In this document: positions 16,550 through 53,648 of the stretch, one piece after another
Numbering within the stretch: position 1 is the stretch's first letter
How the letters are laid out: each line of letters begins with the position of its first letter
Assembly (NCBI RefSeq): GCF_030684315.1
Contig: NC_081354.1
Coordinates: forward strand, 69,874,685 to 69,938,684
Direction of reading: 5' to 3'
DNA: 64,000 nt
DNA from: Stegostoma tigrinum
Taxonomy: Eukaryota
Position numbers and translations under genes: made by a program
The notes under the pieces: model-generated
What the model was told of the DNA's origin: nothing
Database searches by the model: none
Seen by the model: the letters and a program-made list of their open reading frames with translations, nothing else

Positions 16550-16763
16550 GATAACAAAGTGTGGAGCTGGATGTACACAGCAGGCCAAGCAGAATCTTAG
16601 CAGCACAAAAGCTGATGTTTCGGGCCTAGGCAGATTTTCTGATGAAAGGCCTGAGCCCGAAACATCAACTTTTGTGCTCCTAAGATGCTGCTTGGCCTGC
16701 TGTGTTCATCCAGCTCCACACATTGTCATCTCGGATTCTCCAGCATCTGCCGTTCCCATTGTC
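16550..16763. mobile_element. Fold-back (two inverted arms) PLE family-1 element
   Basis: Left and right arms are reverse complements. TSD CAAGG(G/A)TGACCAATGA at ~16536 and ~16763. Confidence 0.85.
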
Positions 16764-16779
16764 AAGGATGACCAATGAG

Positions 16780-18850
16780 TTTGTTATTTTTGACCTGCTC
16801 TTGTCGTCACTGGTTTTATATGGCTGATCAAGTTCAGTTTTTGCTAAATTACATGTTAGTGGGAGGTCCAAGGATGTTAATATCAAAGAGAAATGGTGAG
16901 ATTTTCAAATATTGAAGACGGCCATTCCCTGACACTTGCACTGTTTTAAATGTTTATGCCACCATCAGCATAAACGTGGATGTTGTCTAGGTCTTTCTGT
17001 CTATGGTTAAGGGTTACATCAATAACTGAGGAGTCATGAGTGGTGTTAACATTATACAATCTTCAGTGGATATTCCCACTGCAAACCTTAGGTTGAAAGA
17101 AATGCAAATGATTAAACAGTTGAAGATAATTTAGAATTCCCAGAAGAACCTCTGTAGAGATGGATAGCTATTGAAATTTGTGACGTCCAACAACTACAGC
17201 CGTCTTTCCTTCTGTTAGCCAATGGAAAGCTTTCTCCTTGATTCCCATTAATCCCAATTTTTCTAGGGCTCTTCAATACCATACTCAGTCAATTGCTATG
17301 TTGTTGTGAGGTTAAATTCCTTTTACCTTACCTCTGGAGATCAGCTTTTTTTCCCCCTTTTATTCATCAATGGGATGAGGGTATCGCTGACCAAGCAGCA
17401 TTTATTGACCATCCCTAATTGCCCAGAGGACAGTTAAGAGTCAACTACACATTGCTGTCGGCCTGGAGTCACAGATAGGCCAGACCGGGTAAGGGTGGCA
17501 GTTTCCTTCCCTAAAGGACATTAGAGAACCAGATGAATTTTTCCTGACAATCATCAATGGATTCATGGGCACCATTAGATGCTTAATTCCAGATATTTAT
17601 TAGATTCAAATTCCACCATCTGCCGTGGGATTTGAAACCACATCGCTGGAATGTTACCTGGGTCTCTGAATTAACAGTCCAGCAATAATAACACTAGGCC
17701 ATCACCTCCCTTTTGTCCCTGTTTAGACCAAGGTTGTAATGAGATCGAGATCTGAGTGACCCCGGTAAAACCCAAAGTGAGCATCAGTAAAATATTCCAC
17801 TTGGTATCACAATCAACAAGCACATTCATCACTTTGCTGATGATTCAGAGTCAATTGATAAGATAGTAATTGATCAGTGTGATTTGGATTGGATTTGTCC
17901 AGCTCTTTTGAGACAGGACATACTTGGGCAATTTTTCATTGCCAAGGAGATGCCAGTACTTATAGCTGTATTCAAACAACCAGGTGCATGGTTAGTTCTG
18001 GAGCATGGTATTTAATACTATTGTCAGATTGTTGTCAGGGCCCATAACCTTTACTGTGTCCAGTGTCTTCGTTCATTTCTTGATATCACATGAAGTGAAT
18101 CAGTCGGTTGAAGGTTTGCTTCTGTGATGCAGGGGGCCTCAGGAGGACGCCGAGATAAATCATTCATACAACACTTGTGGCTGAGGGTTGCAAATGCTTC
18201 CATCTTTTCTTTTACATTGATGTGCAGGGTTCGTCAATAATTGAGGATGAGGATATTTGTGGAGCACCCTCCCATTATTTGTTCATTAGTTGTTGTCTGC
18301 TACAATTCATGGCTCAATAAGGCAAACTACAAGGTGTAGATCTGACCCATTAGTTGTGAAATCGCTCAGCTCCATGTAACATTTGCATTGACTGGCATAC
18401 AAGTAGTATGGTGTAATTTTCCCAGGTTGGCACCTATTTTAAAGTAGGCCTGCTGTTCATCCTGGCATAGCCATTCTATACTATTCAATGAAGCAAGGTT
18501 GATCCTCCACCTTGAGACTAAAGGTACAGTTAGGGATATGACTGGCTGTGAGGTTACAGATTGTGGTAGAATTCAGTTTTGGTGCCAATGGTGTTCCACA
18601 GCACCTAATGGATATCCAGCTTTGAGCTGCTGGATTGATTCTGCATATATCTCAGTTAACACAGTAATAGGGTCACACAACACATTGGGAGACATGCTCA
18701 GTATGAAGATAGGAGTTTGGTGTCTACAAGAATTGCAGGGTGGTCACTATTATCAATACTGCCTTTGACAGACACACCTACAGCAGGCAGGGCGGTGCAG
18801 ATGAGATCAAGTAGGGTCTCCCCTTTTTTATTTGCTTCACCACTATCCAA
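16780..18850 (-). mobile_element. Old degenerate LINE with a nested SINE (~17355-17710)
   Basis: Patchy similarity to the degenerate repeat at 56830-57030. The nested element has a tRNA-like minus-strand head GGGAGGTGATGGCCTAGTG. Confidence 0.45.
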
Positions 18851-19179
18851 AGATTCTGTCCAGCAGCTTTAGTACTCAGCTAGGTTAGTCAGATATAGAG
18901 GTAAAGGAGTATTCCTAGATCGGCTTCATGGTATTGTTAATCAGTCCGTTCAGAAATGTTATTACACACATCATGGGACTTGGACTGAAGTTTCCTGACT
19001 CAGAGGTAGTGACATTACCACTGTGCCAAAGAGGCCTCATCTAGGTCTCTATCAATATTTTCTAATCAGCCTGCTCGGAGAGGTTATTTTACATCTCTGG
19101 AGCGTTTTGGAATTTGAAGGTCTCTTGGCACAGAGGTAAGGACTCTACCACTACACCACAAGAGCCCTCTGGGTTTCCC

Positions 19180-20063
19180 CGACGTAGACGAGGCCACGTT
19201 GGGAACAGCAGATACAATAAACCACATCAGACAATGTGCAGGTGAACATCCGTTTAATGTGGAAGATTTTCTCGGGGCCTGGGATGAAGGTGAAGGGGGA
19301 GGTGTAGAAGCAGGCGTAGCCCTTCCTAAGGTCATAGGGAAAAGTACCGGGTGTGGGAGCTGGAGGGGAGCGTGGAGCAGACGAGGGAGTCACAGAGATC
19401 ACGGTCCCTCTGGAAAGCAGATAAGAGTGGAAGGGAAATATATCATTGGTAATGGGGTCAGATTGTGGAGCACCTATACTCAGTTTGTGACAAACGACTA
19501 CACCTCCCAATTATGAACCACTTCAACTACTCCTCCTACTCCTTGGATGACATGTCCATCCTGGGCCTACTCTAGTGCCACAATGATGCCACCCGAAGGC
19601 TGGAGGAACAGCACCTCATATTCCGCTTGGGAGCCCTGCAGCCAAAAGGTCTCAATGTGGGCTTTACAAGTTTCAAAATCTCCCCACCCCCAACCTCATC
19701 CCAAGCCCAGTCCATCTCATCCCCGCCCCCTTGACCTGTCCGTCTTCCCTCCCATCTACCCCCCCGTCCCTCCTCACTGACCAACCCCCATCTCATCTCC
19801 CTACGTACACTCACCTCTACTGGTTTCATCCCCACCTCGTTGACATGACCTTCTTCTCTCCACCTATCTGCTCCACTATCCACCTTCTAACATCACCTCC
19901 TCCTCTATCTATTTATTTCAGAGCCCTCTTCTCCTGCCCCATTTCTTAAGAAGGGTCCAGACCTGAAACTTCAGCTTTCCTGCTCCCCTGATGCTGCCCG
20001 GTCTGCTGTGTTTATCCAGCTCTACACCTTGTTATCTTCAGCATCAGCAGTTCCAATTATCTC
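19180..20063. mobile_element. Penelope-like element with inverted 5' part
   Basis: 19180-19465 is on the minus strand (VVYCICCSQRGLVYVGET). 19470-20063 is on the plus strand and continues the same domain (HLYSVCDKRLHLPIMNHFN...LIFRLG) to the terminal repeat. Confidence 0.8.
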
Positions 20064-21267
20064 TGCTAGACCAGTTCCCACATTTTGCAATCCTATTGAT
20101 AAAATCTTGAGGATAAAATGCAGTTCAAAACTTTCAAATTGGGTATCACATGCCCCTCCCATCCCTTGGCATGTTAAACATCAGGTGTGATTGCCTAATG
20201 ATGTATGGAAATTTTTGAAGATGTCATTCCTTTATCTTTAAACAAATGTTACCAGTATTACACAAGCCAGAAGGAAAATCTGCCCAGGGCTGATTCCAGT
20301 TTCACTTTATGTGGTGAGGCCTGTAACTGTGTTGGCTGAGAGTTTGTAAAGTGGTTAAGAAAATTCCAGAGTCTGATTTCATTCAAACAGCTGCTGTGTT
20401 GGTGAACCTGTGTGAATTACTGGAAATCACACTATTTTCGATCCCAAAGATCTCTTTGGTTCAATATTCTTTGCTTCAATACAGTCGTGGGTGGCTGAGG
20501 CAAAAGTGACCAAGTATACTGAAACATTTTGTATAGTGTGGCACAAATGCAAAATGATATCCATTCATAGTTAGCTCCCAACATAATCTGAAGCCTTGAC
20601 ATTCCCCCTTAGGGATCACTGTGGATTCACAACATGTGTATTGTGCATTTGATGTGAGGCAATTAAGAGATATTCTAACCATCAGTTTGGTAATCGGGCT
20701 ATTTGAAGTATGCCTCGCACACTAAAAACATTATTCCACAGCAAACACAGCAATTTTTCCTGCTGAAAGCCACATGTGCTGGGGAATGGTTGGGTTTGGA
20801 TCTAAATATGAGAAAATTCCAAACAGTGCCAGCCGCTGAAAACGTGTCTCCAGGCAGCATGACATTTGCGTTTGTACAGCACTGGTAATAGTTAGACATG
20901 CTGCAGTGTTAATCTGTGCAGTGCTATGGAATGGCACTGAAAGCAATACTCTTTGCAAACATTGGCTGCAGTACCATCCTTGATCCACAACCATCAGAGA
21001 AGAGATAAGGTGCTGGACTGCCTCACATGAACTCCTTCAGCCTTAACGCTGTTTGCTGATAAATCATGATGCCTTTAATATTCTCCAGAATTTTATCTAC
21101 TTGCAACACACCTCCTTCTTTCTGTCAGCCCTCAAAATTTGACTTACACGTAATCTTTTGCTGTTGGTTTCAGTTTAGCGCCAACAAATTAAAACTAATT
21201 TATATCTGCTGGTCAGCGAATTTGTCTTTGGAGAACCACAACTTTCCTTTTGGCAGTGAGCTGAATA

Positions 21268-22912: not shown

Positions 22913-23056
22913 ATCTCCCCATCCCCCTCTCTGATGAAGGGTCTAAGCCCGAAACATCAGCTTTTGTGCTCCTGAGATGCTGCTTGGCTTGCTGTGTTCA
23001 TCCAGCTCCACACTTTATTATCTTGGATTCTCCAGCATCTGCAGTTCCCATTATCT
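22913..23056 (+). mobile_element. PLE family-1 terminal fragment
   Basis: CTGATGAAGGGTCTAAGCCCGAAAC...CAGTTCCCATTATC. Confidence 0.85.
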
Positions 23057-23099
23057 CAGCTACAGAAGTCTTATTAGCATATTGTCTGGCATGGGCATT

Positions 23100-24660
23100 T
23101 AGAAAATACTCACGGTAATCAGATAGAATCAACAGACTCTGAAATGGAAACCATGTTAAGCCAAATTATTGGAATTCTTTGAGGAAAAAACATGCTGTGG
23201 AGAAAGATAGATGCAGTATATGTAGATTTGCAAATTAAATAAGTTGCAACATAAATGGCTATTGCTGAAAATGACAGCTCATGGTGTAGTGATTAACATG
23301 TTAGAAAAGTGTCTGATGTTTGGCACAGGCTTGGTGAGCCAAAGGTCCTGTTCCTGTACACTAATGTTCTTTACTCTTGAAGGCCAATATACCATTTGCT
23401 TTCATCGTTGAATGTTGTGCCTGCCTGTCTACTTTCATTGACTGGTGTGCAAGGACCGATCCCTTTGCACTTCCTGATATATCATTATTTAAATACGGCT
23501 CCTGCCTTTACGTCTTGCACACCGAAATGTATTTCTTCACATTTAGCCACATTGTACTGCATCAGCTATGTGTTTGTCTACTCACTCAGCTTGTCTAAAT
23601 CCTCAACTAACTATCCTGGTCTCATGTTAGTCTAAATCTTGGTGCATAGGCTGCAATTTCAAATTTTTTGGATGGTATGAAACATGGAAATATTGTCACC
23701 AATGAAGAGGATAGTGTAGAACTTCAAAAGCACACAGACAAGTAGGTAGAATGGACAAATAGGAGTCAGCAACAGTTCAATGCTGAGAAGTGTGAGGTAG
23801 TACATCTTCTTTGGGAGAACATGGAAAAACTGCACAAGATAAAGGGAATAACTCTAAAGAAGGTGAAGGTACACAGTGATAATGGGAACTGCAATGCTGC
23901 AGAATCCAAGATAACAAAGTGTGAGGCTGGATGAACACAGCAGGCTCAGCAGCATCTCAGGAGCACAAAAACTGTCGTTTCGGGCCTAGACCCTTCATCA
24001 TGATGAAGGGTCTAGGCCCGAAACTTCAGCTTTTGTGCTCTGAAGGTGCACAGAGGCCTGATTAAGTATGTGCCTAGCTCATGAGAGATGGCAGGAAAGG
24101 TGAAGGGAGCAGTTAGTAAAGCACACAGTAGTATGGGTTCATTAATGAGCACATAGAAAACAAGAGCAAGGAGGTGATGTTTAACTTATTAAAAACACTT
24201 ATTTGGCCTCATCTGGAGCTTTGCTTCAGGTTCTGGAAGCACAGTCAAGGAGGGATGTGAGAGCACTGGAGAGGGGCTAGATAATGTTTATGAAACCAGT
24301 GCTGAGGAAATTCAGTTACAAAGGTAGAAGAGAGAAAGCATGCCTGCTTTGCTTGGCAAAAACAAGAGGGAAAGGAGATGTGACTGAAGTATTCAAAATC
24401 ATAAGAGATCTGCACAGAGTAAATAGGGAGAAAATATTCTGACTCCTGAAATGATTGAGAATAAAGAAAAAGCACAGATTTAATGCAGTTGTGGAAGAAA
24501 CAAAAATGCTACAAGTAAAAGCTATTTTCATGCGCCAAGTGGGTAGGACTTGGTTTGCGCTGCGTGACAATGGGGTGGTGTCAGGTCCAGCTGCAGTACT
24601 TAAATGAGAATTGTACAGCCATTTGAAAAAGAACAAAAATTAAGGGGATATAAACAGAAG
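23100..24660 (+). mobile_element. Old CR1 fragments interrupted by a PLE fold-back
   Basis: Degenerate RT-region and C-terminal readings (NLLEFFEE-like, FNAEKCEV, LELCFRFW-like). Confidence 0.6.
23878..24040. mobile_element. Fold-back PLE family-1 element
   Basis: Perfect central palindrome CGGGCCTAGACCCTTCATCA|TGATGAAGGGTCTAGGCCCG centred at 24000/24001. TSD TGAAGGT(A/G)CACAG. Confidence 0.88.
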
Positions 24661-25587
24661 GTTTTGGAGAAGTTCTGCAAGGCCGCTGACATCAATGGAG
24701 GAAGAATCAGGATTATCATTTTAAATCCACAGCTCTGAAGAAGAGTCAGATTGAACTCAAAACATGATCTCTATTTCTCTTTCCATAGATGTGGCCGGAC
24801 ATGCTGAGTATACCTAGTACATTGTGTTTTTATTTCAGATTTCAAGCATCTACAATATGTTGTTTTTTAAAAGAATTAAGGGGAGAGGTCAGGAGACTAG
24901 CACTGAGTGGAATGCTCATTCAGAGAGTTGGCAGTATCATGATGGGCTGAATGGATTCTTTCTGCACTATAATGATTTTGCGCTGTTGCAAACAGATATA
25001 TTAACCTCCACCATCTTCAATTGATTGATTAATATGCTGCTATTGAATATCAAAAATCCTTGAACTAATAGAACCTCTTTCCCCAAGTACACGGCAATGT
25101 GACTGCAGTCTACCCTGACCAGTCACTATTGAAAGTTGGTGTCGTACTGGAGGAAATAGTAAAGAGGAGATACTATGAATATGAGCAAGAAGCAATGCTG
25201 AAATTCATGGACTCCATGGGATTAAAGATGGAGTGGGTGGGGGCCAGGGAACAGGGCAATCTGAAGAAATCTCCATGTCCTTGTGACAAGATGCAAACCT
25301 CAGTTAAGATGATAAAGCTGCTTCCCATGTCTCTACTGATCATCCATTGACTCCTGCAGTGATTTGACTGTTGTTTGGCTCAGGCAGACTTATTAACGTA
25401 AATGCACATTGAATGTAGGATACATCCTGTACAGTTAGGTTGAGTGAGTTAAGAGTGGAAGGAACAAGTATGCAACTGTCCCACCATGGGCTCCGATAAA
25501 GTTACATGTTCATTCAGTTCAGAGCAGTGTTGGTTTGGGGGTGTAAATCAGTGACTAGCCATGATACAACCCATTTGAGATTTAAAT

Positions 25588-25821
25588 AAAAACTGAAAGA
25601 ACTGCGGATGCTGTAAATCAGGATCAAAAAAAGAAGTTGCTGGAAAAGCTTAGCGGGGCTGGCAGCATCTCTGAAGGAAAAAACACAGTTAATGTTATGG
25701 GTCTGGTGAACTGTTGAGGAAGTTCCAAGGAATGGTCACCGGACCCGAAACGTTAACTCTGTTCTTTCCTTCACAGATACTGCCAGACCTACTGAGCTTT
25801 TCCTGCAACTTTGTTTTTGTT
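25588..25821. mobile_element. Fold-back PLE family-2 element
   Basis: Inverted arms with TSD CCATT(T)GAGATTTA. The paralogous site near 44570 is empty. Confidence 0.8.
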
Positions 25822-27434
25822 CCATTGAGATTTAGCTGGTGTGTAATCTCAAATCTTTCACAGTGCAAATATTGTGCCTGTTTTCATGCTTCTCAAGGAC
25901 TGACCTGAACAGGTTGTTAATTTTAGTCATATCACTAAATAAACCTACTCAACAATTGTTTTTGCTGAAGGTTATGAAATGGTGACAAGGTATTCTTCAT
26001 GAAATTTTCTTTATTTTCATCTCTTAAAAAGGATTTAAAGGTACAAAAACCTAAAATAACTCATATACATATAATTCAGATACATACAGCATTTTTGGAG
26101 TTGCACTCCTGTATACAATACAACTTTTACACAAAATTTTCTGAGGTCAACAAAATCCTAGGCTGAAAACTCATCTGTACAAAAATGTCACTGCACAGAG
26201 AAGAGTTTTATTTATCAATGCTATTACTTCTGATTAATATTAATGATAAGCAGCATTTTCTCCCAAAATGTTAGTATTTCGCAAACATCATTTCTTTGCA
26301 CAGACTTCAGTTTTGGAGGCTTGATATCATACAAACAAAGTCCGGAGAGGTTCACTTAAAATGTAAATAACTGATGTAAACACGGCAGCAAAATCATGTA
26401 GACTGCACAGGCTTTCAAAAGCACAGAAAGACTGTTTCAAACGAATTTACAGCTAAATTTGAAACAATGTCAATCTTCTTGTACTTCCACATTCCCTGTA
26501 TGAATATTGTGTCTTCATTCTTCTATATTGTTCCACTACAGCTCAGCACAGGCTAAAGAAACGTGATATCAATTTTAGACAGGCCACTTTACAGTCCCAT
26601 TATCAACACTATGGTGAACATTTTACAAATCATAAGTCCTGCCTGCTCCACCTTCTCATTGGACAGTAGGGTATTGTTCGCCGTTCTGCATCTTCTCATT
26701 TGCACCTCTTCAAAACATAGTTTTTGTTCCCTCACTTGACCATTCTTATCTATTTTGCCTTGCACCACTGTGCCTCCAGTCATCAGACTTCTCCTCTCTT
26801 TAGTGCCACAAGGACTGCAGCATTTCAACAAAGGAGCTTGCCAGCACAGTCACACAAGCAAAAAGGAATGGAGGATAAGTGTTGAGTTTGGCAACCATGC
26901 ACAAATTTTGTGAAATAATTTTCTAACCATCAATAAATCAAATTGTTGAAAAATTAGTATTGATTATCTTAATTCAAACAATAACATTTAAATGCCGACA
27001 AATTTGTCTTATTTTGATTTCTCCCCAAGTTCATAAGGCCGTTAATATTTCCTGTCCACCTCTTCGGTGAACACAAATTATTTTCCAATGCGAATGGAGT
27101 AAGTTAACAGATTGCTTTCAGTTGTACGGCATCTCCTAACACTGCCAGATCACATCCAGAATAATTCTACAAAACTTATCTCGTGAAAAGAAAACCGGCA
27201 GCGCGGCACGAAGTTTCGCAATAGCTGCCTGACCTCTTAGACCATGTGTAAACAACTACAGCGCAAAAGGGTTAAACACTGAAAATTGTTTCAGAGATTT
27301 AATGCTCAACCAACATATCGAACGGTGATATCAGAAAGAGGAATGCCCCGCAGTGACTTCCTTCACTTCAGTGTTCACTCTACGGCAAGTTCCCCGGGTG
27401 GGCAATCCAGTCAATCCCATTGCAGCTTCAATTC

Positions 27435-28780: not shown

Positions 28781-28886
28781 CTTTGATTTTGTTGCTGAAT
28801 AGGCTCCTGCAGAAGGATCTTCTGTTTGCTTCAGTGCCACTCTCTCTGTTGAATGAAGTTGTGCTGTAGACAGGTCCAAAAGCTCC

Positions 28887-29541: not shown

Positions 29542-31260
29542 AGATAACAAAGTGTGGAGTTGGATGAACACAACAGACCAAGCAGCATCTTAGGAGCACA
29601 AAAGCTGACATTTCAGGTCAAGACTCTTCAACAGAAAAGGGGAGGGGGAGAGGGTTCTGAAATAAATTGGGAGAGAGGGGGAGGCGGATCGAAGATGGAT
29701 AGAGGAGAAGATAGGTGGAGCGGAGACAGACAAGTTAAAGAGACGGGGATGGACCCAGTAGAGGTGAGTGTAGGTGGGAAGGTAGGAAGGGGATAGGTCA
29801 GTCCAGGGAGGATGGACAGGTCAAGGGGGTGGGATGAGGTTAGTAGGTAGGAAATGGAGGTGTGGCTTGAGGTAGGAGGAGGGGATAGGGGAGAGGAAGA
29901 ACAGGTTAGGGAGGTGGGGATGAGCTGGGCTGGTTTTGGGATGCAGTAGGGGGAGGGGAGATTTTGAAGCTTGTAACATCCACATTGATACCATTGCAGG
30001 GTTCGCAAGCAGAATATGAGTTGCTGTTCCTGCAACCTTCGCATGGCATTGTTGTGGCACTCCAGGAGGCCCATGATGGACATGTCGTCTAAGGAATGGG
30101 AGGGGGAGTTAAAATGGTTCGTGACTAGGAGGAGCAGCTGTTTATTGCGAACCGAGCGGAGGTGTTCTGCAAAGCCATCCCTAAGCCTCCACTTGGGTTG
30201 CCCAATGTAGAGGAGGCCACAGCCTCCTCTACAGGAGGGTACAGCAGATGCAGTGTACCACATTGGCAGATGTGCAGGTGAACATCAGCTTGATGGGGAA
30301 CGTCATCTTGGGGCCTGGGATGGGGGTGAGGGAGGAGGTGTGGGGCCAGGTGTAGCACTTCCTGTGTTTGCAGGCGAAAGTGCCAGGTGTGGTGGGGTTG
30401 GAGGGGAGTGTGGAGCAGACAAGGGAGTCATGGAGAGAGTGGTCCCTCTCGCAAACAGACAAGGGTGGGGAGGGAAAAATGTCTTTGGTGGTCGGGTTGG
30501 ATTGTAGATGGCGGAAGTGTTGGAGGATGATGCGTTAGATCCAGAGGTTGGTGGGTTGGTACGTGAGGACAATGGGGATTTTGTTTTGGTGGTTATTGCG
30601 GGGACGGGGTATGAGCGATGTGTTGCGGGAAATGCGGGAGACATGGTCAAGGGCATTCTCGACCACTGCAGGGTGGGGTGATGGTGGGTAGTTGCGGTCC
30701 TTGAAAAACGAGGACATCTGAGATGTACAGGAGTGGAATGCCTCATCCTGGGAGCAGATGCAGTGGAATCGAAGGAATTGGGAATAAGGGATGGCATTTT
30801 TGCAGGAAGGAGGGTGGAAGGAGGTGTATTCTAGGTAGCTGTGGGAGTCAGTGGGCTTGAAGTGGATATCGGTTTCGAGGTGGGTGCCTGAGATGGAGAC
30901 AGACAGGCCCAGGAAGGTGAGGGAGGTATTAGAGATAGTTCAGGTGAACTTGAGGTTGGGGTGGAAGGTGTTGGTGAAGTGGATGAACTGTTCAAGTTCC
31001 TCGTGGGAGCACAAGGTGACGCCAACACAGTCATCTATGTAACGGAGGAAGAGGTGGGGTTTAGGGCCAGTGTAGGCACGGAAGACGGATTGTTCCGCGT
31101 AACCTATCAAGAAGCAGGCATAGCTTGGGCCCATGCGGATACCCATGGTCACCCCCAATGAATGGTCTTGTGCTCCTAAGATGCTGCTTGGCCTGCTGTG
31201 TTCATCCAGCTCTGCAATTTGGTATCTCGGATTCTCCAGCATCTGCAGTTCCCATTACCG
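29542..31260 (-). mobile_element. Penelope-like retroelement (RT + GIY-YIG) with inverted terminal arms
   Basis: RT motif GVTMGIRMGPSYA...FLRYIDD (ORF 30940-31242) and GIY-YIG (CGLLYIGQ...NHFNS; ORF 29628-30263). Terminal arms at 29542-29632 and 31168-31260 are inverted. TSD TGCTTCCTGACCTG. Confidence 0.92.
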
Positions 31261-32188
31261 CTGCTTCCTGACCTGCTCACTTTTCCAGCAATTTAAGCTT
31301 TTGTTCTAGATTGTACACCTCAGCCACCGGGGAGCTTTTCATCAACATAACAGAAAACACAGAACAAATCAATGGAGCTGCATCGTATAATTTATGGGGA
31401 ACATTTCTGTCTTTCATTGGCTATGTTTTATGATGTGACCCTTGGACCTGAAGGTTGAGGTGTGGAAAGAGGTGAAGTTGTGAAAATGTCTTTCTGGATT
31501 TGTTTAGAGATGGCACTCGTAAGCAAATTTTAGTTTGAGGATGCAGTGACTTCAGTTCTGGAATTTCTTTGAACTCCTTGTTCTAGTGCAGATATTTAAT
31601 ATCATTCAATGTCAGAATCTATGTTGATTGTTTGTTCTTCAATCTGCATTACTAACACAAAATTAAAATGTTTCAGAAATATATAGCAATCACTTATCAC
31701 AAATTAAAATAGATTATATTTTATATATTCATTCCCTGAATTGACAATTCAAATTGACTGTGGGAAATTTTAGTTCTGCATTTTGCAGGTGACCCAGAGA
31801 ATAATGTTACTCTTCACAGTTGGCACTGTTCCCTGGAATGAGATAAGGAAGCAAGCACTGAGCTAAAAAGCGTGATTTACAAGAAATAGATCATCCCATA
31901 ATTTGACAATACAAGTTGCAGAATTTGCTCATTTACAATGTTCAAGCATCAATTGTAAATGGGTTGGATGTTAAAATAATGATTTTCATCTGCAAAGCTT
32001 TTTCAAAATCTGCAACATTATCACATAAGGGTGAGCAGGGATGAAAATAAGCAAGAGGCAGACTTAGGCTTTACGCAGCCACACAAAGAGAATTTGACCC
32101 AAAATAATCTGACTTCCTGGAATTCATACAAATTCACAATGAAATCTGACTCCAAAATGTTATGAATCACAAATCCAGAGAGACAAGT

Positions 32189-34912: not shown

Positions 34913-35249
34913 AATATTTGGCAGCTCTTTGTTTTGCATTTGATTTTTGTTGCTCAGTTCAACTACAAAACTCCAGTAGAATTGAAACTGTTTATGTTAA
35001 ACTCTGTCTTTGTGTAATTTTTCGAAATTCAACCTGTTCAGAGGAATTATGACAAACTCGGAGCAGATGAAACTTGAACCCAGCCACTGTGCCACAACGG
35101 CCCTCCTGTCCTTTCGTATTCTTCAAAGGAGAAACCACAAGATGTATCTGGAAAATAATTCACGGGGGATGGGCTGCTGCTGAGCAGGCGAATGATTAGC
35201 CTCTTGTTAGCTTTAGGGTCACAAGAGATCACAGCCCAGTCTGTTTTGA

Positions 35250-35465
35250 TCAGAGATAATGGGAACTGCAGATGCTGGAGAATCCAAGATAACAAAGTGT
35301 GGGGCTGGATGAACACAGCAGGCCAAGCAGCATCTTAGGAGCACAAAAGCTGATGTTTCGGGCCTAGACCCTTCATCAGAAATGGTCTAGGCCCGAAAAA
35401 CCAGCTTTTGTGCTCCTAAGATGCTGTTTGGCCTGCTGTGTTCATCCAGCTCCACACTTTATTAT
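35250..35465. mobile_element. Fold-back PLE family-1 element
   Basis: Long arm on the left, short arm on the right. TSD CCAGTCTGTTTTGA at 35236-35249 and 35466-35479. Confidence 0.88.
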
Positions 35466-36615: not shown

Positions 36616-37896
36616 TATCACCTTGCAAAATGGGAAAAACTGATGTGTGAGTCCTAATGTGGAGTGGGTGAAGATTATCATTCAAGCTCAGAGAGGTTGG
36701 TGCCTGCATCTACATTTGGGAAATCCAGGAGAAGGTGGGAATGTCACTGGATACCACTAGATGCAGGAATGCTGAGTGATGCCATAAGACCATGAGATAT
36801 AGTAGTGAAAGGAGGCTATTCAGCCCATCATGTCAGCTCTGCCATTCAATGAGCTGATCTGTCGACAAGACAAATGGCAATTCATTTCATCCAGTAAGGA
36901 TTCACAGCTAGTTTTTCACTTTTGTTGAGTGCGTGATTTTAAAGAGTCAGCACTCACGTCTGCAACTGAATTCACGACGGCCAAGCTGAATTCAAGTTTG
37001 TAGCACTCCAAACCCAACATTTTCTTCTCTGTAACATCCCATCCAGCTATCAAAATTAATATTTGCACTGACTAGGTATCAAACCAAGCCCTCCCACTGG
37101 ATAAGAACCAAAAGAACTGCAGATGCTGTAAATCAGGAACAAACACAAAGTTGCTGGAAAAGCTCAGCAGGTCTGGAGGCATCTGTGGAGGAGAAAAAAG
37201 AGTTGACATTTGGGGTCCGGTGACGTTTCCTCAGAACCCGTTCTGCGGAAGCGTCACCGGACCCGAAACATTAACTCTTTTTTCTCCTCCACAGATGCCT
37301 ACAGACCTGCTGAGCTTTTCCAGCAACTTTGTTTTTGTTCCTCCCACTGGAGTCAGCCAAATGAGATCAGCCAACTTGATACATCCCATTAAAAAATGGA
37401 CTTTGTGTGCTTTTCATGTGCCTTCCTTCATGGTCAGTTCTGTGATATTCTGCACAGCATTGTAAGCAGGCAATGTGTAGATTTTCTTTAACTTTTTGTG
37501 ATCTCTTTGATTTTGAATCTTTAAAGTAATATTCTACAGAATTTTTTCAACTACAACTACATAGGCCTTTCATGTGTTAAATCAATTTTGTAAAATTCAT
37601 CATAAAATCACAATCATTAGCAATGCTGGAAATGTCGATCATACCCTATAATTATGTTCCGTGAAGACAATAAGTCCTTGATGTCAACTAAAATAAGTAT
37701 CTGATTTTAGAAGCAAACAATACCTTGTTTTAATTTTATAGCAGGTGCCAAGTCACACAACAGGGAAATGAAGGTGCACTGGGATTCACTCAATTGCATA
37801 CTGGGGAATTTGCTGTGGAGTCAACATGGAAATGAAGGAAACCCCCTGCAGGGTGGTCACTTTCTGATGTTACCTTCCAATAGATTTTTTGAGTAG
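36616..37896 (+). pseudogene. CXC chemokine pseudogene C (exons 3-4 only)
   Basis: Exon 3 at 36616-36695 (ITLQNGKN*CVSPNVEWVKIIIQAQR) has an in-frame TGA at 36641-36643. Exon 4 starts at 37745 (GAKSHNREMKVHWD...). Exons 1-2 and the TATA region are absent; comparison with copy E places a ~2.6 kb deletion near 36318. Confidence 0.85.
37104..37339. mobile_element. Fold-back PLE family-2 element in intron 3 of pseudogene C
   Basis: Inverted arms with TSD CCTCCCACTGGA at 37090-37101 and 37340-37351. The paralogous site near 57727 is empty. Confidence 0.85.
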
Positions 37897-41014: not shown

Positions 41015-41207
41015 CAGTGAAACATTCTGGGAAAGGTGTCCTCGCAGTCAGTGTCATGGTGAAACATTCTGGGAAGGGTGTCCTCGCAGTCGCTGTCACG
41101 GTGAAGCCTTCTGGGAAGGGTGTCCTCGCAGTCGGTGTCACAGTGAAGCCTTCTGGGAAGTGTGTCCTTGCAGTCAGTGTCACAGTGAAGCATTCTGGGA
41201 AGGGTGA
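41015..41207. repeat. 42-bp minisatellite carrying TTCTGGGAA
   Basis: Unit ~CATTCTGGGAAGGGTGTCCTCGCAGTCAGTGTCACRGTGAAR. TTCTGGGAA starts at 41025, 41067, 41109, 41151 and 41193. Confidence 0.95.
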
Positions 41208-41335
41208 CACCAGCTGTTCCATGGCAATAGATGTTGCAGTTCTGTCAGATGATGTTGTTCTGGGGTTAACAAATGTTTTTGGTGAGGCTTCGTGTAAGTT
41301 CAAACTACAGGAAGCAAACACTTGGATGTAGCATA

Positions 41336-41537
41336 AGATAACAAAGTGTGAAGCTGGATGAACACAGCAGGCCAAGCAACATCTCAGGAGCACAAAAGCT
41401 GACGTTTCGGGCCTAGATGAAGGGTCTAGGCCTGAAATGTCAGCTTTTGTGCTCCTGAGATGCGGCTTAGCCTGCTGTGTTCATCCAGCTTCACACTTGT
41501 TATCTTGGATTCTCCAGCATCTGCAGTTCCCATTATC
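41336..41537. mobile_element. Fold-back PLE family-1 element
   Basis: Inverted arms. TSD CACT(T/G)GGATGTA(G/A)CA at 41319-41333 and 41537-41551. Confidence 0.88.
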
Positions 41538-42969: not shown

Positions 42970-42970
<1 letters not shown>

Positions 42971-43006: not shown

Positions 43007-43012
<6 letters not shown>

Positions 43013-47564: not shown

Positions 47565-47672
47565 CTTTGACTTTGTTGCTGAATAGATTTCTGCTGCAGG
47601 ATCTGTTGTCTACTTCAGTGACACTCGTTATCCTGAATGAAGTTCTGCTGATGACGGGCCTAAATAAACCCC

Positions 47673-47780: not shown

Positions 47781-49403
47781 TGCAGTTTAACAAGTTTTGG
47801 CATGTTACGTAATCCATAACAGCAACAGGCAAACCAGGTAAACTGAATTAGTTTAATCTAGATTCAGAAGAAGTGCAATTTTCAGAAATTTCCACCTTTG
47901 CCAAAGTGTAAAAAAAAGTGTGGGCAGAGACAATGTCAAATTTGCCTCCCAATGAGTTTAATTGTAAAAGTGATATAGTTGCCAGATCTACTACTGAGTG
48001 ATTAACACATTTGTCAATTTTCCAAACACTCTCAAGTTGAATTATTTTCCCAGTTGTACACTGTGCTCTTGGAAATTATCTTGTAAATCATCAAGTCCTT
48101 TTGTACTGGTCATAATACGTTCCTTTCAGTCTTAATTAGTTTCAATGACAATAAAAATTGCAAAAATCAAACTGCATCAGTTTAATGCTTTTTATCGATT
48201 TTCCCAAAGCAATTAACATCAGATGACTTGAATAATTCAGTTCTAGATCTCGCAGCTCAGTCACTGGGGACTTTTTCATCAACCTAACAGTAAGCACAGA
48301 CAAATCAACGGAACTGCACTTTAAAATTTACAGAGAATATTTCTGTCTTTCATTGGTTTTACTTTCTGCTGTGACTCTTAGATCTGAATGTTCATGTTTG
48401 GAAAAAGTTGAAATGGTATAAATGTCATTTTGGATTTATTTAGAGATGCCACTTTTAATTCAACTTTTGATTAAAAATGCTGTAATGTTGGTCCTGGAAA
48501 AGAAATATCGCCAAAATTTTTGTTCCAGTGCAGATATTTAAATCATTGACCAGACTTTATTTTGGTTGTTTGTTGTTCGAACTGCATTATCAACTGACAA
48601 TTTAAATATCTCAATAAGTTTGCAGCGATCATTTATCAAACTAAAATAGATTATAGTTTAGATATTCGTCACCTAAATGAATAGTTTCAATTTGACTGTG
48701 GAAAATTTTAGTTCTGCTTTTTGCAGTTGACCCAGGGAACAAGGTCATTTCACACTTGGCACAGATCCCTGGGAATATATGAGGAAGCAAGTACACGCCT
48801 GAGCTGAATATCATGAATTACAAGAAATGGATCATCCTCTAACATGACAACTCAAGGAGCGCAGTTTGCTTACTTACAAAGCATAAGCATCAATTGTAAA
48901 TGCAATGCATGTTAAAATAGTGATTTTCATCTACAAGGCATTTTCAAAGTCTGCAACACATCTTAAGGCAAAACGAAACATTTAGTAATATGAAAATATC
49001 AGGGTGATCAGGGATGAATGAGAATATGAGGCAGATCTAGACTTTCTACAATCATGAAGAGACCTCTACCCAAACTAACCAGATTTCCTGGAACTTACAT
49101 GAGTTCACCTTCAAATGGATGCAGTTTATCTGACAAGCATGTGAACAGTGACTGTCATTGCTGTAACTCAGCTGGCTCCTCCCCCTGAGTTTGTATTGTG
49201 GTTGGTGACGGTGTAGAGTCAGACTTCATTCAGACAGCAGCTGGTGTTTGTGAACCCATGTGAATTCCAGGAAATCCCATTGTTTTATACTCCATGTAGC
49301 TGTGTCAATGATTGGCTTTGTCCCCAATCATTAGTGGGTGGATGAGGTTAACGGGCCCTTGCAGACAGTCAGATGAGATCACAGTATTGTGCAGTTTTTC
49401 TGA

Positions 49404-49491
49404 AGAAGGGTCTAGGCCGGAAACGTCAGCTTACCTGCTCCAATGATGCTGCTTGGCCTTCAGTGTTCATCCAGCTCCAGGCCTTGTTATC
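49404..49491 (+). mobile_element. PLE family-1 single arm
   Basis: CTGAAGAAGGGTCTAGGCCGGAAACGTC with TSD TCACAG(T/C)ATTGTG. Confidence 0.8.
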
Positions 49492-49639
49492 TCACAGCAT
49501 TGTGGGTGGTCTAGCAAAGATACAAATAACTTCGACTGTTACTCAGCTCCTAAAAAGTACTGATGGAAGCAAAAAATGCTGGAGATCGCAACAGGACAGG
49601 CAGCATCCATGCAAGAAAAGCAAGTTAACATCTCCAGGT

Positions 49640-52500
49640 TTACTAATGAAGAAGCTATCTATCGCTGTCTTAAATACACACAATGACATGGCCTGTACAG
49701 CTCTCTGCAGCAATGACATCCAAAGGTTCACTAACCTATGGCTGAAGAAATTCCTCCTCATCTCGTACAAAGGCTCATCCCTTCACTTAGCCTGTGCCTT
49801 GGAGCATAGTGTCTCTAACTAATGGAAACATCTTCTCAACGTCCAGTTGGCCCTGGCCTCTTCGTATTCTCTAAGAGTCAATCAGATCAACCCTTATCCT
49901 TTACACTTCAGCAAGTACAGGCCCAGATTCCTAAACTGCTCCCTGTTGACAAGGCCTTCAGACCTGGGATTATTCTTGTCCATATCCTCTGGGCACCCTC
50001 CAAAATGTGTACATCCTTCCTTAGTAATAAGTTACCGAGCCCAAAACTGCTCACAATATTCCAAATGCGGTCTGACAAGATCCTTATAGAAACTCAACAG
50101 TGCATCCCTTTTCTTGTATTCTAGCCCTCTTGAAAATGAAGGCCAACATTGTATTTGCCTTTCTAACTGCCAACCAAACCTACAAGTTGAGAGAATTCTG
50201 AACTAAGACTCCTAAGTACCTTGTGCTTTAGATTTTTGAAGTCTTCCCTTCTTTAGAAAATAATCTACACCCTTAATCTTCTTACAAAAATACATCATCT
50301 CACATTTTTCCACAGTGTACTCCATCTGCTACATCTTTGCCCACTTGCCTAGCATGTCCAAATCCTTCTACAGCCTTCCTGCTACCTCAACAATAACTCT
50401 CCCATCACCTATCTTTGTGTTCTCTGTAAACTTACCAACAATGCCCTCAGCTCCATCGTCCAGATCATTAATGTATAACATGAGTAGTTATGATTCCAAC
50501 AATGACTCCAGCAAAACATCGCTGGTCACCGGCTACCATCCTAAAAAAGATCCCTTTATCCCCACTTCTGCCTTTTGCCAGTCAGTCAATCCTTTATCCC
50601 AGCTGGCATCTTGCTCCAAACATCATGGTATCTTATCATATTTAGCAGCCTGCTATGCAACACCTCATCAAAGGCCTTCTAGAAATCCAAATATGTCACA
50701 TCCATTATATCTCCTGCATCTAACATTGTATTTTTACTTCCTTAAACATTCTTACAGATTTGTCAGACATTACCCCTCCTTGATGAAGCTCTATTTTACC
50801 ATGCATTTCCAAACAATGTGCAATTTCATCCTTAATAATGGATTTAAATCTTAGCAACTGCCAAAGTGAATGCTAACTGACCTATAGTTTCTTGTCTTCT
50901 GCATCCCTCCCTTCCTAAACACTGCGCCATTTTCCAGTCTGGGAAATCTGGGATCCTCCCTGATACCCAATGGTTCCTGAAAGATCGCCTCTACCTCTTC
51001 AGCCTCATTTTCCAGCGAACAATGTCCACTTTTGCCTCTTCCTTACCTTTTAAATATCTCAAAAAAAGGTCCTTGCCCAACTTATTTTATATTGGTAGCT
51101 AAATTATCTTTACACTCCACCTTAATTTCCCCTCAGGTTTTTCAATTATTCCATGCTGGTTTTTAGAGACTTCCCAATCCTCTGGCTTCCCACTAATCTT
51201 CACCACATTGTCTGCTTTTTACTCAGTTTTTATGCTGTTGCTGACTTCACTCATCAGCCATGGTTACCTCGTCCTTGTTTCATATGGTTCTTCTTCCTCA
51301 TTAGGATGAATTTCTGCTGTGCCTCCCAAACCACCCCAGAAACTTATGCCATCGCTGTTCCACCATTTACCCTGCAAGATATCCCTTCCAATCAAATTTG
51401 ACCAGTTCTTCCCTCATATCTTTGAGGTTACCTTTATTCAAATTGATTACCATTACATCTGATTCCAGTTTCTCCCTCTCAAACAGCAGGACGAATTCTA
51501 TCATATTATGGTCACTGCTCCTTGGGGTTCCTTCACTTTAAGCTCCCTGATCAAGTCTGCCTCATGACACATCATCAAAATCTATGACTTCGTACTCCCT
51601 ACCACAAGCCGTTCTAAAAAGCTATCTCATAGACACTTCACAAATTCCTCTCATTGAGATCCATTGCAAACTGATTTTCCAGTCGACATGCATATTGAAG
51701 CCCCATAGGACTATTGAGTGCCTTTTCTATCTCATGATTTATTTCTCGCCCTACGTCCTGATGACTGCTAGGAGGCCAGTACATAATTCCCATGCGAGTC
51801 TTTTTTCCTTTGTGGTTCCTCAATTCTACCGACACTGATTCTATGCCTTCTGACTCCATATCACTCCTTGCCATTGGCTTCATTTCATTTTCTTACCAAC
51901 AAGACAACCATGCCCTCTCTAAATAAAAATTGAAAAAAAACTGTGGATGCTGTAAATCAGGAACAAAAACAGAAGTTGCTGGAAAAACTCAGCAGGCCTC
52001 AACATTTCCGCTCCTGTGAGGAAGGGTCACCAGACCCGAAACGTTAACTCCGATTTTTCTTCACAGATGCTGCCAGGCCTGCTGAACTTTTCCAGCAAGT
52101 AGGCCCTTTCTACTCATCTGTCTGTCCTTTAGATTGGAAGCATATCCGTGGATATTTAGTCCCCAGATCTGATATCCTTGCAGCCGCGTCTGATGCCCAC
52201 AACACCGTATCCGTCAATTTCAATCTGGGCTACAAGTTTATTTAAGACAACATGGTGTGAAGCTGGATGAACACAGCAGGCCAAGCAGCATCAGAGGAGC
52301 AGGAAAGTTTGACATTTCAGTTCAGGACCCTTCTTCAGCTTATTTACCTTGTTTTGTATTCTGTATGCATTTAAGTACAACACCCACAGTCCTGCATTGA
52401 CTGCCCCCCTTCTCATAGTTGTCCCGTTATCTGATGTGGCTGAAGTTAGATTCCTGACACTTTCCATTCTGCCTCTCCTATTTCTTGCTGTGGAAATTAA
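49640..52500 (-). mobile_element. Old CR1 LINE with several internal deletions and nested PLE pieces (51922-52100, 52245-52340)
   Basis: 3' end RRNFFSHRLVNLW (ORF 49543-49770) and endonuclease region ESVSVELRNHKGKKTRMGIMYWPPS (ORF 51638-51883). Confidence 0.8.
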
Positions 52501-53006
52501 CTTCCTTCGCCTTTCTATTCCTTGTCATGTCTGACTGAATTCCTGCATTCAGGGTAATTAAAAAGTCATTTTGTTTTATTCTAAAGAACAGTCACTGGAC
52601 TCGAAATGTTTTTGCTCTATAGATGCTGCCAGACTTGCTGACATTCTCCAGAAATTTCTGTTTTAGTTTCAGATTTGCAGCATCTGCAGTTTTTTGCTTT
52701 ACATTTGCTTTTTGTTGTCTAGGTCAACCTGGAGTGCAATTGAAAACTGTTTTACGTTAACCCCTGTCCTTGCGTATTTTTCTAAATTCAACCTGTTCAG
52801 ATGAATTATGACACAACTTGGAGCAGATGGAACTTGAACCCGGCCACTGTGCCACAACAGCCCTCCTGTCTTTGCAGATTTTTCAAAGGAGAAACCACAA
52901 GATGTGTCTGGGAAATAACTCACCAGGGGTGGCTTGCTGCTGAGCAGGAGGGATAAGCCCCTTGTTACCTTTAGGGTCACAAGAGATCACAGCCCGTCTG
53001 TTTTGA

Positions 53007-53218
53007 GATAACAAGGTGTAGAGCTGGATGAGCACAGCAGGCCAAGTATCAGAGGAGCAGGAAACTTGACGTTTCAGGCCTACACCCTTCTTCTGAAGAA
53101 GGGTCCAGACCCAAGACATCAGCTTTCCTGCTCTTCTGATGCTGCTTGGTCTGCTGTGTTCATCCAGCTCTACACCTTGTTATCTCAGATTCTACAGCAC
53201 CAGCAGTTCCCACTATCT
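53007..53218. mobile_element. Fold-back PLE element (family-1 variant subfamily)
   Basis: Short arm on the left, long arm on the right. The TSD matches CCAGTCTGTTTTGA with 1 mismatch on each side. Confidence 0.85.
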
Positions 53219-53405
53219 TCCAGCCTGTTTTGACTTGTCTTTCTAAATTGGCCCAGCCTTTAACTCCTCCCTCATCCATTCACAATCTTGATGGGTTAGG
53301 AAGGAGCAGTTCACACCTTAGGGAATGCCACTGTTTACTTTGTCTCCCAATGAAATGGAATGTGCCATCTCATACGCAAATCAGAAGCTACTTTAATTTC
53401 ATAGG

Positions 53406-53648
53406 GATATTGGGAACTGCAGATGCTGGAGAATCCAAAATAACCAAGTGTGGAGCTGGATGAACACAGCAGGCCAAGCAGCATCTTGGGAGCAGGAAAG
53501 CTGACATTTCGGGCCTAGACCCTTCATCAGATAAGGCTTCATCAGCAATAACTTTTCTGATGAAGGGTCTAGGCCCGAAACGTCAGCTTTTGTGCTCCTA
53601 AGATGCTGCTTAGACTGCTGTGTTCATCCAGCTCTACATCTTGTTATC
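53406..53648. mobile_element. Fold-back PLE family-1 element
   Basis: Inverted arms. Intact core CTGATGAAGGGTCTAGGCCCGAAACGTC at ~53557-53584. The paralogous site near 35670 is empty. Confidence 0.88.

Follow-up and report, generated by a model that had tools for sequence, protein, structure and literature searches.

Short inverted-pair insertions in a shark CXC-chemokine cluster are the short end of a continuum of head-to-head Penelope-like element insertions, probably remade at each site

The window, a 64,000-nt stretch of the Stegostoma tigrinum genome (NC_081354.1, positions 69,874,685 to 69,938,684), lies in a CXC-chemokine cluster. An earlier note, made from the sequence alone, had described at least nine insertions in it that consist of two inverted copies of an element terminus, in two families. 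All nine (9/9) were located as head-to-head inverted pairs (Table 1), with arms of 74-126 nt and a complementarity of 82-93% for the largest. Most had been said to carry TSDs of 12-15 bp; we measured TSDs of 10-16 bp around seven of the nine, while that of the 51922 copy is weak and the 53406 copy has no TSD of 8 bp or more at its flanks, showing instead a 5-bp TTCAT repeat and extra bases. Taking the C of CUGAUGA in the hammerhead core as +1, the outer ends lie, as reported, at a TTATC-like site, either the internal one (about +93) or the terminal one (about +130); only the short arm of 23878 departs from this (about +41). The centre of this fold-back, 24000/24001, is indeed a palindrome without a spacer. 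The 53007 and 35250 fold-backs occupy the same site in paralogous segments.

Absent from the earlier note are about ten single-arm stubs and a long member at 29542..31261, the short-ended arm of which reaches -1526, inside the RT/EN coding region (minus), and the tailed arm of which covers +34..+129 (plus). The single copy at 5197..5797 retains the end of the EN-coding sequence together with a TATA-like TATTTAT at about -33. No fold-back lies inside a chemokine exon, among the exons located in the window. Stub density here does not exceed roughly twice the average (9 were seen, or 8 by the counting rule, against 4.1 expected; p = 0.025 for 9), and a rough extrapolation gives some 1.6e5 + 0.5e5 stubs genome-wide. 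The immune-locus connection drawn in the earlier note is weak, the stubs being found genome-wide.

Table 1. Fold-backs and single copies in the window (element numbering as in the text)
Feature	Positions	Strand	Extent	TSD
Single family-1 copy, 5'-truncated	5197..5797	+	-464..+129	present
Single family-2 stub	7204..7336	-	start ~-3/-4, tail present	
Family-1 fold-back	16550..16763	.	short arm +13..+96 (minus) joined to tailed arm 0..+125 (plus)	16536-16551 / 16763-16778, ~16 bp, 1 mismatch
Single older family-1 3' end	19855..20068	+	-88..+132; upstream pieces to 19166	
Single family-1 stub	22914..23063	+	-16..+133	
Family-1 fold-back	23877..24040	.	tailed arm +2..+129 (minus); short arm stops ~+41	23864-23876 / 24041-24053, 13 bp, 1 mismatch
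Family-2 fold-back	25585..25824	.	tailed arm minus; short arm plus, start ~-3	10 bp, 0 mismatches
Long member, fold-back layout	29542..31261	.	1.7 kb	14 bp, TGCTTCCTGACCTG
Family-1 fold-back	35250..35465	.	tailed arm 0..+131 (minus), short arm +7..+92 (plus)	35236-35249 / 35466-35479, 14 bp, 0 mismatches
Family-2 fold-back	37102..37339	.	two arms start ~-2, two cores mutated	12 bp, 0 mismatches
Family-1 fold-back	41334..41536	.	short arm +12..+94 (minus), tailed arm +3..+129 (plus); junction overlap 2 nt	12-15 bp (15 bp with 2 mismatches)
Single older family-1 stub	49399..49492	+	start ~0	
Family-2 fold-back	51922..52102	.	tailed arm start ~+61, short arm ~+2	weak, 10 bp, 1 mismatch
Single older family-1 stub	52244..52338	-	start +1	
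Family-1 fold-back, older subfamily	53007..53219	.	short arm minus, tailed arm plus	14 bp, 2 mismatches
Family-1 fold-back	53406..53648	.	two arms start at 0; 24-nt filler between	
Single family-1 3' end	60207..60425	-	-87..+135	
Single older family-1 3' end	63451..63587	+	upstream pieces to 62901	

The stub arms correspond to the 3' terminus (pLTR) of RT + GIY-YIG elements. A full-length family-1 copy (G000:C1:1175506-1180577) comprises a 5' pLTR, an ORF, a 3' pLTR, an inverted truncated copy and a TSD, and bears out the PLE origin proposed in the earlier note. Its ORF is frame-broken, with the order RT (YIDD)-CX4CxxC-GIY-YIG; the match to PF01541 (E 7.5e-4, 20.2 bits) is slightly below the 22.6 cut-off, and Pfam RT and PDB searches with pieces of the ORF gave no match. 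The translation of the coding relative shows YIDD, GVAMG and VVYCIHCTRCGFLYIG, and has the RT followed by a GIY-YIG endonuclease with the CCHH motif, as in EN+ PLEs with a C-terminal EN. The layout is also that of EN+ PLEs, with pLTRs in partial tandem, an optional inverted 5'-truncated copy, a one-sided tail and a TSD. The CNRRKCYTC upstream of GIY-YIG has the form of the CX2-5CxxC motif, which in the RT-EN linker marks the Neptune and Nematis clades (PMC8557442), and by this linker motif the parents are classed as Neptune/Nematis-type Penelope-like retroelements. A long family-2 copy encodes an RT-EN 55% identical to that of family 1. Head-to-head PLE insertions form a continuum of sizes with the stubs at its short end, and their layout is already published.

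Pair statistics were collected from 1.66 Mb of genome blocks, hand-picked rather than random, with identity cut-offs of 88%, 85% or 80% depending on the count. Arms ending before +66 were not scored as arms, which places the window copy 23878 outside the pair counts, and a 14-match tandem array (block C1a 5000-5800) was left out. Genome-wide core and junction counts are pattern matches, and intact cores were defined by CTGA.GA-(9-16)-GAAA..TH. A tail-ended arm is joined to a short-ended arm in 104 of 110 family-1 pairs, against 49% expected from 85 long and 109 short singles (p ~2e-24), and in 27/27 family-2 pairs; only one tail-to-tail pair was seen. The outer end is at about +93 on one arm and about +130 on the other, with a single TSD around the pair. 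TSDs flank 56 of 64 young pairs (37 of the 56 being 14-16 bp), compared to 0/64 in mismatched-flank controls, and the target-site consensus of these 56 has only a weak symmetrical A/T bias. In vitro, a PLE protein cuts and extends both strands, and its RT begins at two internal positions between which the tail lies (PMC11167929). The combination of one tailed and one short arm matches these two start sites, suggesting that both target nicks were likely primed on RNA. The strict rule of one start site per arm is not explained by that assay, because the two strands used the same start sites there (PMC11167929).

The 5' reach of the two arms is strongly coupled: both are short in 79 pairs, both long in 18, and mixed in only 7 (n=104; Fisher p 4e-14). 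Shortness is therefore a property of the template, and not of a stall hit independently by each arm. In 9 of 25 long pairs, one of which is a tandem, the tail-less arm extends further 5' than the tailed arm, an outcome that copying of one arm from the other cannot yield. Arm-to-arm mismatch is 10.8%, against 44.8% for shuffled pairs, and is compatible with one RNA or with two RNAs of the same source. The tail/short pairing in both families and the longer tail-less arms support one of the two origins offered in the earlier note, priming from both staggered target ends. As the shortest class among ordinary head-to-head PLE insertions, the stubs were likely remade at each site by priming of both nicks. 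Both strands of a 14-16-nt staggered cut would be primed on element RNA, one nick per start site, and the template would be an RNA with its 5' end only 95-135 nt upstream of the RT start sites, supplied either by the mRNA with its 5' pLTR or by read-out transcription from any 3' pLTR. Both cDNAs would probably run off the nearby RNA 5' end, after which the two ends would be trimmed and end-joined via 1-6 nt of microhomology or filler. The stubs would be dead ends, since they lack the promoter region upstream.

In both families, the distribution of arm 5' ends has a sharp upstream edge, located at -5..+3. Young family-1 starts (n=236) occur at 7.4 per nt in -5..+3, 0.53 at -20..-6, 0.075 at -60..-21 and 0.021 farther upstream, and the same scheme gives 6.1, 0.67 and 0.025 for family 2 (n=129). 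About 30 nt upstream of the edge, both families have a TATA-like box (TATTTAT at -33 in family 1, CATATAAA at about -33 in family 2), and family 2 has TCAGTT with its A at -3; the boxes and TCAGTT resemble the TATA and Inr consensus. Judged from these motifs, the edge is rather probably a transcription start; against this reading, D. virilis Penelope is described as having an internal promoter without TATA (PMC2377424). An extra C on the cDNA side of several junctions is suggestive of a cap-derived extra G, and 9 of the 14 family-2 arms at -2 have a G preceding the start; neither is separable from microhomology or subfamily variants. In a search of the openly readable literature, we found no account of the stub class or of 5'-end hot spots.

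The minimal-hammerhead motif recognized in the earlier note is borne out. The family sequence has the features of a minimal type I hammerhead (core, stem II, palindromic 15.2-16.2), with the same CUGANGA...GAAA-CG-UH as the minimal PLE hammerheads of Cervera and de la Pena 2014 (PMC4209133), and its 28-mer core is matched exactly at 92,176 places genome-wide, versus 0 for a reversed control. The predicted stem II pair probability is 0.57 in an isolated arm, and helix I has 2 bp in family 1 and 4 bp in family 2. No hammerhead model matched in an Rfam search, which returned only generic hairpin (miRNA-model) matches below gathering score. The statement that cores sit on both strands does not hold for most copies: both are intact in one window fold-back (53406), one in two (16550 and 35250) and neither in six, and the 84 short family-1 fold-backs of the wider sample have both intact in 8, one in 26 and none in 50. 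A recurrent precise core deletion in long copies was considered and rejected, with only 9 genome-wide matches and varied ends.

Family 1 has a second 5'-end edge at +29, the predicted hammerhead cut. Its palindromic junctions number 771 at AGCT (+29..32), against 53 at ACGT (+24), 154 at CTAG (+13) and 24 at GGCC (+56). There are 1,460 asymmetric junctions, of which the first 100 were tallied by eye: about 29-31 lie at +29 (14 being ambiguous within +28..+30), 9 at +24..+28 and about 59 at +30..+36. Other microhomology sites (+8, +12/13, +38) peak locally as high as +29 in the 1.66 Mb. In family 2 there is no edge at the predicted cut (+31), with 4 starts at +30..+32 versus 20 at +13..+29, and only 7 palindromic junctions fall at this cut; the family-2 cut control (139 matches) is not clean, since it also catches CTAG-centred junctions of other subfamilies. 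By eye, 32 of the first 100 of 384 family-2 junctions are upstream of the cut versus 15 at or after it. Family 2 lacks the edge despite a helix I that looks better than that of family 1. The anole element could insert in vitro without cleavage, and its RNA reads showed no ends at the cut (PMC11167929). From sequence features, the case for the family-1 +29 edge being a hammerhead-cleaved 5' end is evenly balanced.

If a single antisense RNA or cDNA folded back near the hammerhead and primed itself, the resulting hairpin could be inserted, with the tail difference arising from endonuclease resolution, as proposed by Arkhipova 2013 and Craig 2021. Palindromic junctions are common, this is their published reading (PMC3846280), and the arms mostly share subfamily sites (60 of 73 pairs counted as differing at no more than one, with 49 at none and 15 at one). 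Snap-back of a sense-templated cDNA, however, cannot yield the longer tail-less arms, nor pairs of mixed subfamily, in which the arms differ at three or more of five sites (3/73). Many junctions have kilobase loops with 0-4 nt of overlap or filler, and the outer ends match the sense-strand RT start sites measured in vitro (PMC11167929). Self-priming is improbable, and its antisense-template version is weakened. A somewhat less improbable, though still unlikely, alternative keeps twin priming and takes the edges not as RNA 5' ends but as RT stalls or a splice junction, with a pause on structured or protein-bound RNA at +29 and, at about -2, a pause at helix I or a 3' splice site. The family-2 upstream sequence fits a branch point, a pyrimidine tract and an AG at -3/-2, resembling a splice acceptor that ends at -2, several family-2 copies have G-rich bases replacing the template at that edge, the cut-site edge is missing in family 2, and the D. 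virilis Penelope intron ends at helix I (PMC4209133). Yet the arms are short together, unlike independent stalls, long copies read through that stretch, no AG stands at the family-1 edge, and the junctions examined share no common upstream exon longer than about 4 nt.

The other origin offered in the earlier note, that the fold-backs are non-autonomous units, transcribed and re-inserted as viroid- or retrozyme-like rods with a working hammerhead in each polarity, appears very improbable. Their number is very high (2,885 with both cores within 0-8 nt, and 771 that share a single junction), the predicted rods are stable (about -140 to -180 kcal/mol), and the core is slightly better kept than its neighbours in the fold-back arms (5/342 vs 63/1882, p 0.06; arm to arm, p 0.09). 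This test leaves out variable subfamily columns, which inflate the non-core count (p 0.008 with them, invalid); the trend falls short of significance, the core is rich in A, and long arms lean the same way. Against the rods, 64 young pairs have 63 distinct junctions, and 20 loci sampled for the commonest junction fall into four subfamily haplotypes, are unrelated in their flanks and have short arms that end between +47 and +98. Relative to the tail, the same junction is found in either polarity. Identical junctions do recur at unrelated loci, as the note had asked, but they do not indicate mobilisation as a unit, since they were re-made across subfamilies and polarities; the note had also held that unique and randomly placed junctions would mark ordinary truncated PLEs, and the junctions are near-unique but far from random. 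Both cores are rarely intact, opening the rod into the hammerhead fold is predicted to cost about 44 kcal/mol, with a stem II probability of about 1e-21 in the rod, the cores lie on opposite strands and give no dimer of the kind that minimal hammerheads need (PMC4209133), and the stubs are without the upstream promoter region. We found neither the fixed structure shared by dispersed copies in clades that characterizes a SINE- or MITE-like unit nor the direct tandem units, each with a complete hammerhead, of non-LTR retrozymes, the pairs being inverted. A minority of unit-copied stubs may still exist, the sample being 1.66 Mb.

LINE-1 twin priming, in which both target ends prime reverse transcription, likewise produces a head-to-head inversion with one TSD and junction microhomology. 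There the two pieces derive from separate, non-overlapping stretches of one RNA, whereas both stub arms copy the same terminal segment. Published EN+ PLE insertions (Adineta Pen2a/Pen2/Pen3a, PMC3846280; scheme in PMC8557442; D. virilis form C, PMC2377424) share the head-to-head layout and the one-sided tail, which measures 30-40 bp (PMC3846280). In Adineta-type elements one TSD surrounds the whole insert and junctions are palindromic, as in the stubs, and the inverted arm is shorter by 37 bp in Pen2a versus 35-40 nt in the stubs (PMC3846280). TSDs of 8-10 bp are given for published EN+ PLEs, as against 14-16 bp in the shark stubs; the shark insertions further differ in their dominant ORF-less class (79/104 pairs), in numbering some 10^5 copies and in their sharp 5' edges, which we did not find described. 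Poseidon_Ac (PAc; Frangieh 2024, PMC11167929) shares two internal RT start sites, cutting and extension of both strands, and a hammerhead upstream of the start sites; it belongs to another clade, Poseidon, without the CX2-5CxxC linker. Its report describes no strand-specific site use and no trace of cleavage in RNA reads, in contrast to the shark insertions, with one site per nick and a family-1 edge at the cut. Thousands of dispersed minimal hammerheads have been ascribed to truncated PLEs, and dual min-HHRs about 100-700 bp apart on opposite strands were noted earlier in Schistosoma (PMC4209133). In the text of that paper junctions are not mapped, and cleavage and circularisation are proposed without in vivo evidence; the cores here are known from sequence. 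Non-LTR retrozymes (bioRxiv 10.64898/2026.07.22.740005) resemble the stubs in being short, non-coding, related to PLE pLTRs and provided with a type I hammerhead, but consist of direct tandem repeats in which every unit carries an intact hammerhead, unlike the inverted pairs with mostly broken cores.

The stubs themselves are ordinary PLE debris of published layout, and their value lies in the data. The origin of inverted pLTRs and tails and in vivo cutting by the weak PLE hammerheads are stated as open questions (PMC8557442, PMC3846280, PMC11167929). It is conceivable, if somewhat less than evenly likely, that the stubs are a fossil run-off assay of the PLE cycle in a vertebrate germline, in which a protein dimer primes one nick per start site and the cDNAs end at the transcription start, placed at hammerhead helix I, or, in family 1, at the +29 cut. 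If so, they would be genomic evidence that the minimal PLE hammerhead cuts template RNA in vivo, and antisense self-priming would be replaced as the explanation of inverted pLTRs. The counts yield testable coordinates: strict pairing of one long with one short arm, an RNA start expected at -5..+3 and a 5'-OH end expected at +29. If the stubs stem from read-out transcripts of any pLTR, this would explain some 10^5 dispersed minimal hammerheads without a SINE-like master.

All nine inverted pairs listed for the window in the earlier note were found. In these fold-backs, named here by their start, two copies (arms) of the 3' terminus (pLTR) of a Penelope-like element (PLE) of family 1 or 2 are joined head to head. 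Positions follow a scale that includes position 0, with +1 at the C of the hammerhead core (CTGATGA in family 1, CTGAGGA in family 2); the predicted cuts fall after +28 and after +30, respectively. L arms carry the tail and end at about +125 to +135, and S arms end at about +90 to +98. Target-site duplications (TSDs), claimed for most copies, are clear in seven of the nine (10-16 bp) but weak for 51922 and lacking for 53406. Hammerhead cores on both strands, presented as typical, proved to be the exception (1/9 window copies and 8/84 short family-1 fold-backs in the sample). The window additionally contains about 10 single stubs.

Two paralogous segments upstream of chemokine-like genes, with flanks 78-88% identical, carry different fold-backs (35236-35479 and 52993-53233) at the identical nucleotide position and with an identical 14-bp TSD; one is of a young and the other of an older subfamily, and their tails lie on opposite sides. 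The measured target-site bias is too weak to account for the shared site, which may reflect repeated insertion at a hot site or replacement of an ancestral insertion.

The exact 28-nt family-1 core has 92,176 copies in the 3.2-Gb genome. Our sample comprised the window and 1.6 Mb of the same genome in 16 hand-picked blocks, five of them from the first contig and picked partly for known matches. It holds 414 family-1 arms, with 110 head-to-head pairs, one tail-to-tail pair, and 194 singles (85 L, 109 S). Pairs of one L and one S arm account for 104/110, against 49% predicted from the singles, and for 27/27 in family 2. TSDs flank 56/64 young pairs and 0/64 controls (mode 14 bp), with insertions ranging from ~140 bp to 4.2 kb. 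Among the 104 L+S pairs, both arms are short (without the coding part) in 79, both long in 18, and mixed in 7. Where a long arm is present (25 pairs), the L arm extends further 5' in 15 and the S arm in nine (including one tandem and four older copies below 88% identity), with one tie. The tail cannot come from an S arm, nor the extra length of S from a shorter L arm; therefore, each arm of these S-longer pairs was copied from RNA. Arms of a pair mostly agree at five subfamily sites (37/343 mismatches within pairs versus 44.8% when shuffled), which may reflect no more than which source was active. Two RNAs were sometimes used, because 9/73 pairs differ at two or more of these sites and 3/73 at three or more. 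In a single long head-to-head insertion (L050:3983-3997; G000:C1:521984-521996), the junction filler consists of roughly two telomeric repeats that read as TTAGGG-type along the cDNA strand and follow a GGTT end, which looks like telomerase extension of one cDNA end.

The proposal of rod-like, two-polarity ribozyme units is not supported: in the loci sampled, the fold-backs are not mobilised as a unit, and 64 young pairs have 63 distinct junctions between them. An identical junction does recur at unrelated loci, but in four subfamily haplotypes: the 20 loci taken from 771 with the commonest junction have unrelated flanks (19 L+S, TSDs in 17, S ends from +47 to +98). Among 15 loci taken from the 2,885 with both cores, an identical junction is seen in either polarity with respect to the tail. 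For copy 53406, the rod folds at -168.8 kcal/mol versus -124.3 kcal/mol for the hammerhead-constrained structure, and stem II has a probability of 3e-21 in the rod versus 0.57 in the isolated arm. Core conservation in fold-backs shows no significant excess over background. A new ribozyme element was rejected because junctions differ, haplotypes and polarities are mixed, and the rod disfavours the hammerhead.

Long arms continue upstream into a 3.5-kb element. Its ORF, broken in frame, encodes an RT of YIDD type, then a CX4CxxC linker and a cysteine-containing GIY-YIG domain, as described for Neptune/Nematis PLEs (PMC8557442). One copy has the whole published layout (pLTR-ORF-pLTR, inverted truncated copy, and TSD), and a long family-2 copy encodes an RT-EN protein with 55% identity. 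An ADGTPP(T/M) repeat of variable number precedes the RT (L038 N-terminal half; L056). On the minus strand of L038:9034-9120, the pLTR has an ATG (+47) that shares the frame of the main ORF; a TGA at the tail end, kept across copies, separates the two, and the ATG is no more than a candidate start codon. Internally deleted copies (L059:7013-7874 and the L140 region; blocks C2 87013-87874 and C1c 29650-31125), in which the 5' pLTR and a short ORF-start piece are followed at once by the 3' pLTR, may represent genuine non-autonomous derivatives; the 5' pLTR of L059:7013-7874 begins at 0. At L031:5047-5840, ~14 tandem units of ~50 bp come from +46..+82 of the family-1 pLTR, with an inverted arm at the end.

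Starts of young family-1 arms (n=236) concentrate at -5..+3 (7.4 per nt), falling to 0.53 at -20..-6, 0.075 at -60..-21, and 0.021 beyond, with a decaying tail downstream. Family-1 single stubs share this edge, and family 2 repeats it (n=129; 6.1, 0.67, and 0.025 per nt). About 30 nt above it, both families have a TATA-like box, TATTTAT at -33 in family 1 and CATATAAA at ~-33 in family 2, where TCAGTT lies at -5..0. The sharp upstream edge, the downstream decay, and the joint shortness of the arms fit a process in which the cDNAs of both arms would run off the template RNA at its 5' end and then be trimmed. Because PLE RT starts internally (PMC11167929), an RNA beginning in any pLTR would have its start sites merely 95-135 nt from its 5' end. 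As caveats, the D. virilis Penelope promoter is described as TATA-less (PMC2377424), an intron of that element ends at helix I (PMC4209133), and in family 2 the sequence above the edge is also readable as a splice acceptor.

A second family-1 edge coincides with the predicted hammerhead cut: +29..+31 holds the starts of 11 young arms, or 3.7 per nt, versus 0.75 at +13..+28. Four 4-nt palindromes were compared across the genome for perfect palindromic junctions (patterns of 20-22 nt, CpG-tolerant where needed), which number 771 at +29, 154 at +13, 53 at +24, and 24 at +56. This ranking is not due to annealing strength, because the +13 site lies closer to the main edge with a longer imperfect self-complement. 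In print, junction palindromes are put down to self-priming on an antisense template. A tally by eye of the first 100 asymmetric junctions, out of 1,460, places ~29-31 at +29 (5 without overlap, 10 with an AG overlap, 14 ambiguous over +28..+30, 2 doubtful), nine at +24..+28, where the gap limit under-samples +24/+25, and ~59 at +30..+36. The edge could also be an RT pause instead of a cleavage end. Counting against a cut-related edge, the small sample has local peaks about as high at +8, +12/13, and +38, and the anole in vitro study (PMC11167929) saw no RNA ends at the hammerhead cut. In family 2, an edge at the predicted cut was looked for and not found.

Further features of the window around the fold-backs
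Feature	Position	Strand	Remarks
CXC-chemokine gene or piece	10420-11700	-	RCxC-motif exon-2 piece 10780-10902 matches PF00048 (IL8/chemokine family)
CXC-chemokine gene or piece	27900-28800	-	same match, 28334-28456
1.7-kb insertion with fold-back layout	29542-31261		TSD 14 bp
CXC-chemokine gene or piece	36600-36700	+	exon-like pieces
42-bp tandem repeat	40995-41244		GAS-like TTCNNNGAA per unit; directly upstream of fold-back 41336
CXC-chemokine gene or piece	46700-47600	-	same match, 47120-47242
CXC-chemokine gene or piece	54430-57300	+	exon-like pieces

The fold-backs lie between chemokine exons or upstream of them. Rough extrapolation gives 1.6e5 (family 1) and 0.5e5 (family 2) short fold-backs genome-wide, and the window holds 9 (8 by the counting rule) versus 4.1 expected. 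In the 36.6-kb copy, the exon-3-like piece opens with a stop, with fold-back 37104 ~400 bp beyond; in the 54.4-kb copy, the first splice donor may be altered. Two chemokine starts have NF-kB-like sequence matches a short way upstream (11842; 28957/28967), and an ISRE-like match lies at 23141. Nothing found in the sequence links the hairpins to these genes.

The inverted-pair layout is already in print (PMC3846280, PMC8557442, PMC2377424, PMC8969392). Pairs of minimal hammerheads on opposite strands have been published as well (PMC4209133), and so have the two RT start sites (PMC11167929). The dominant stub class, the one-each rule, and the 5'-end edges were not found in the literature, although supplements, Repbase/Dfam, and subscription papers may hold them. 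The fold-backs are real and of an ordinary, already known kind. Tentatively, at somewhat less than an even chance, the stubs would be a run-off record, with one start site used per nick and cDNAs extending to the RNA 5' end (a start at helix I or, in family 1, the +29 cut). As a natural read-out, the fold-backs can inform on the PLE cycle.
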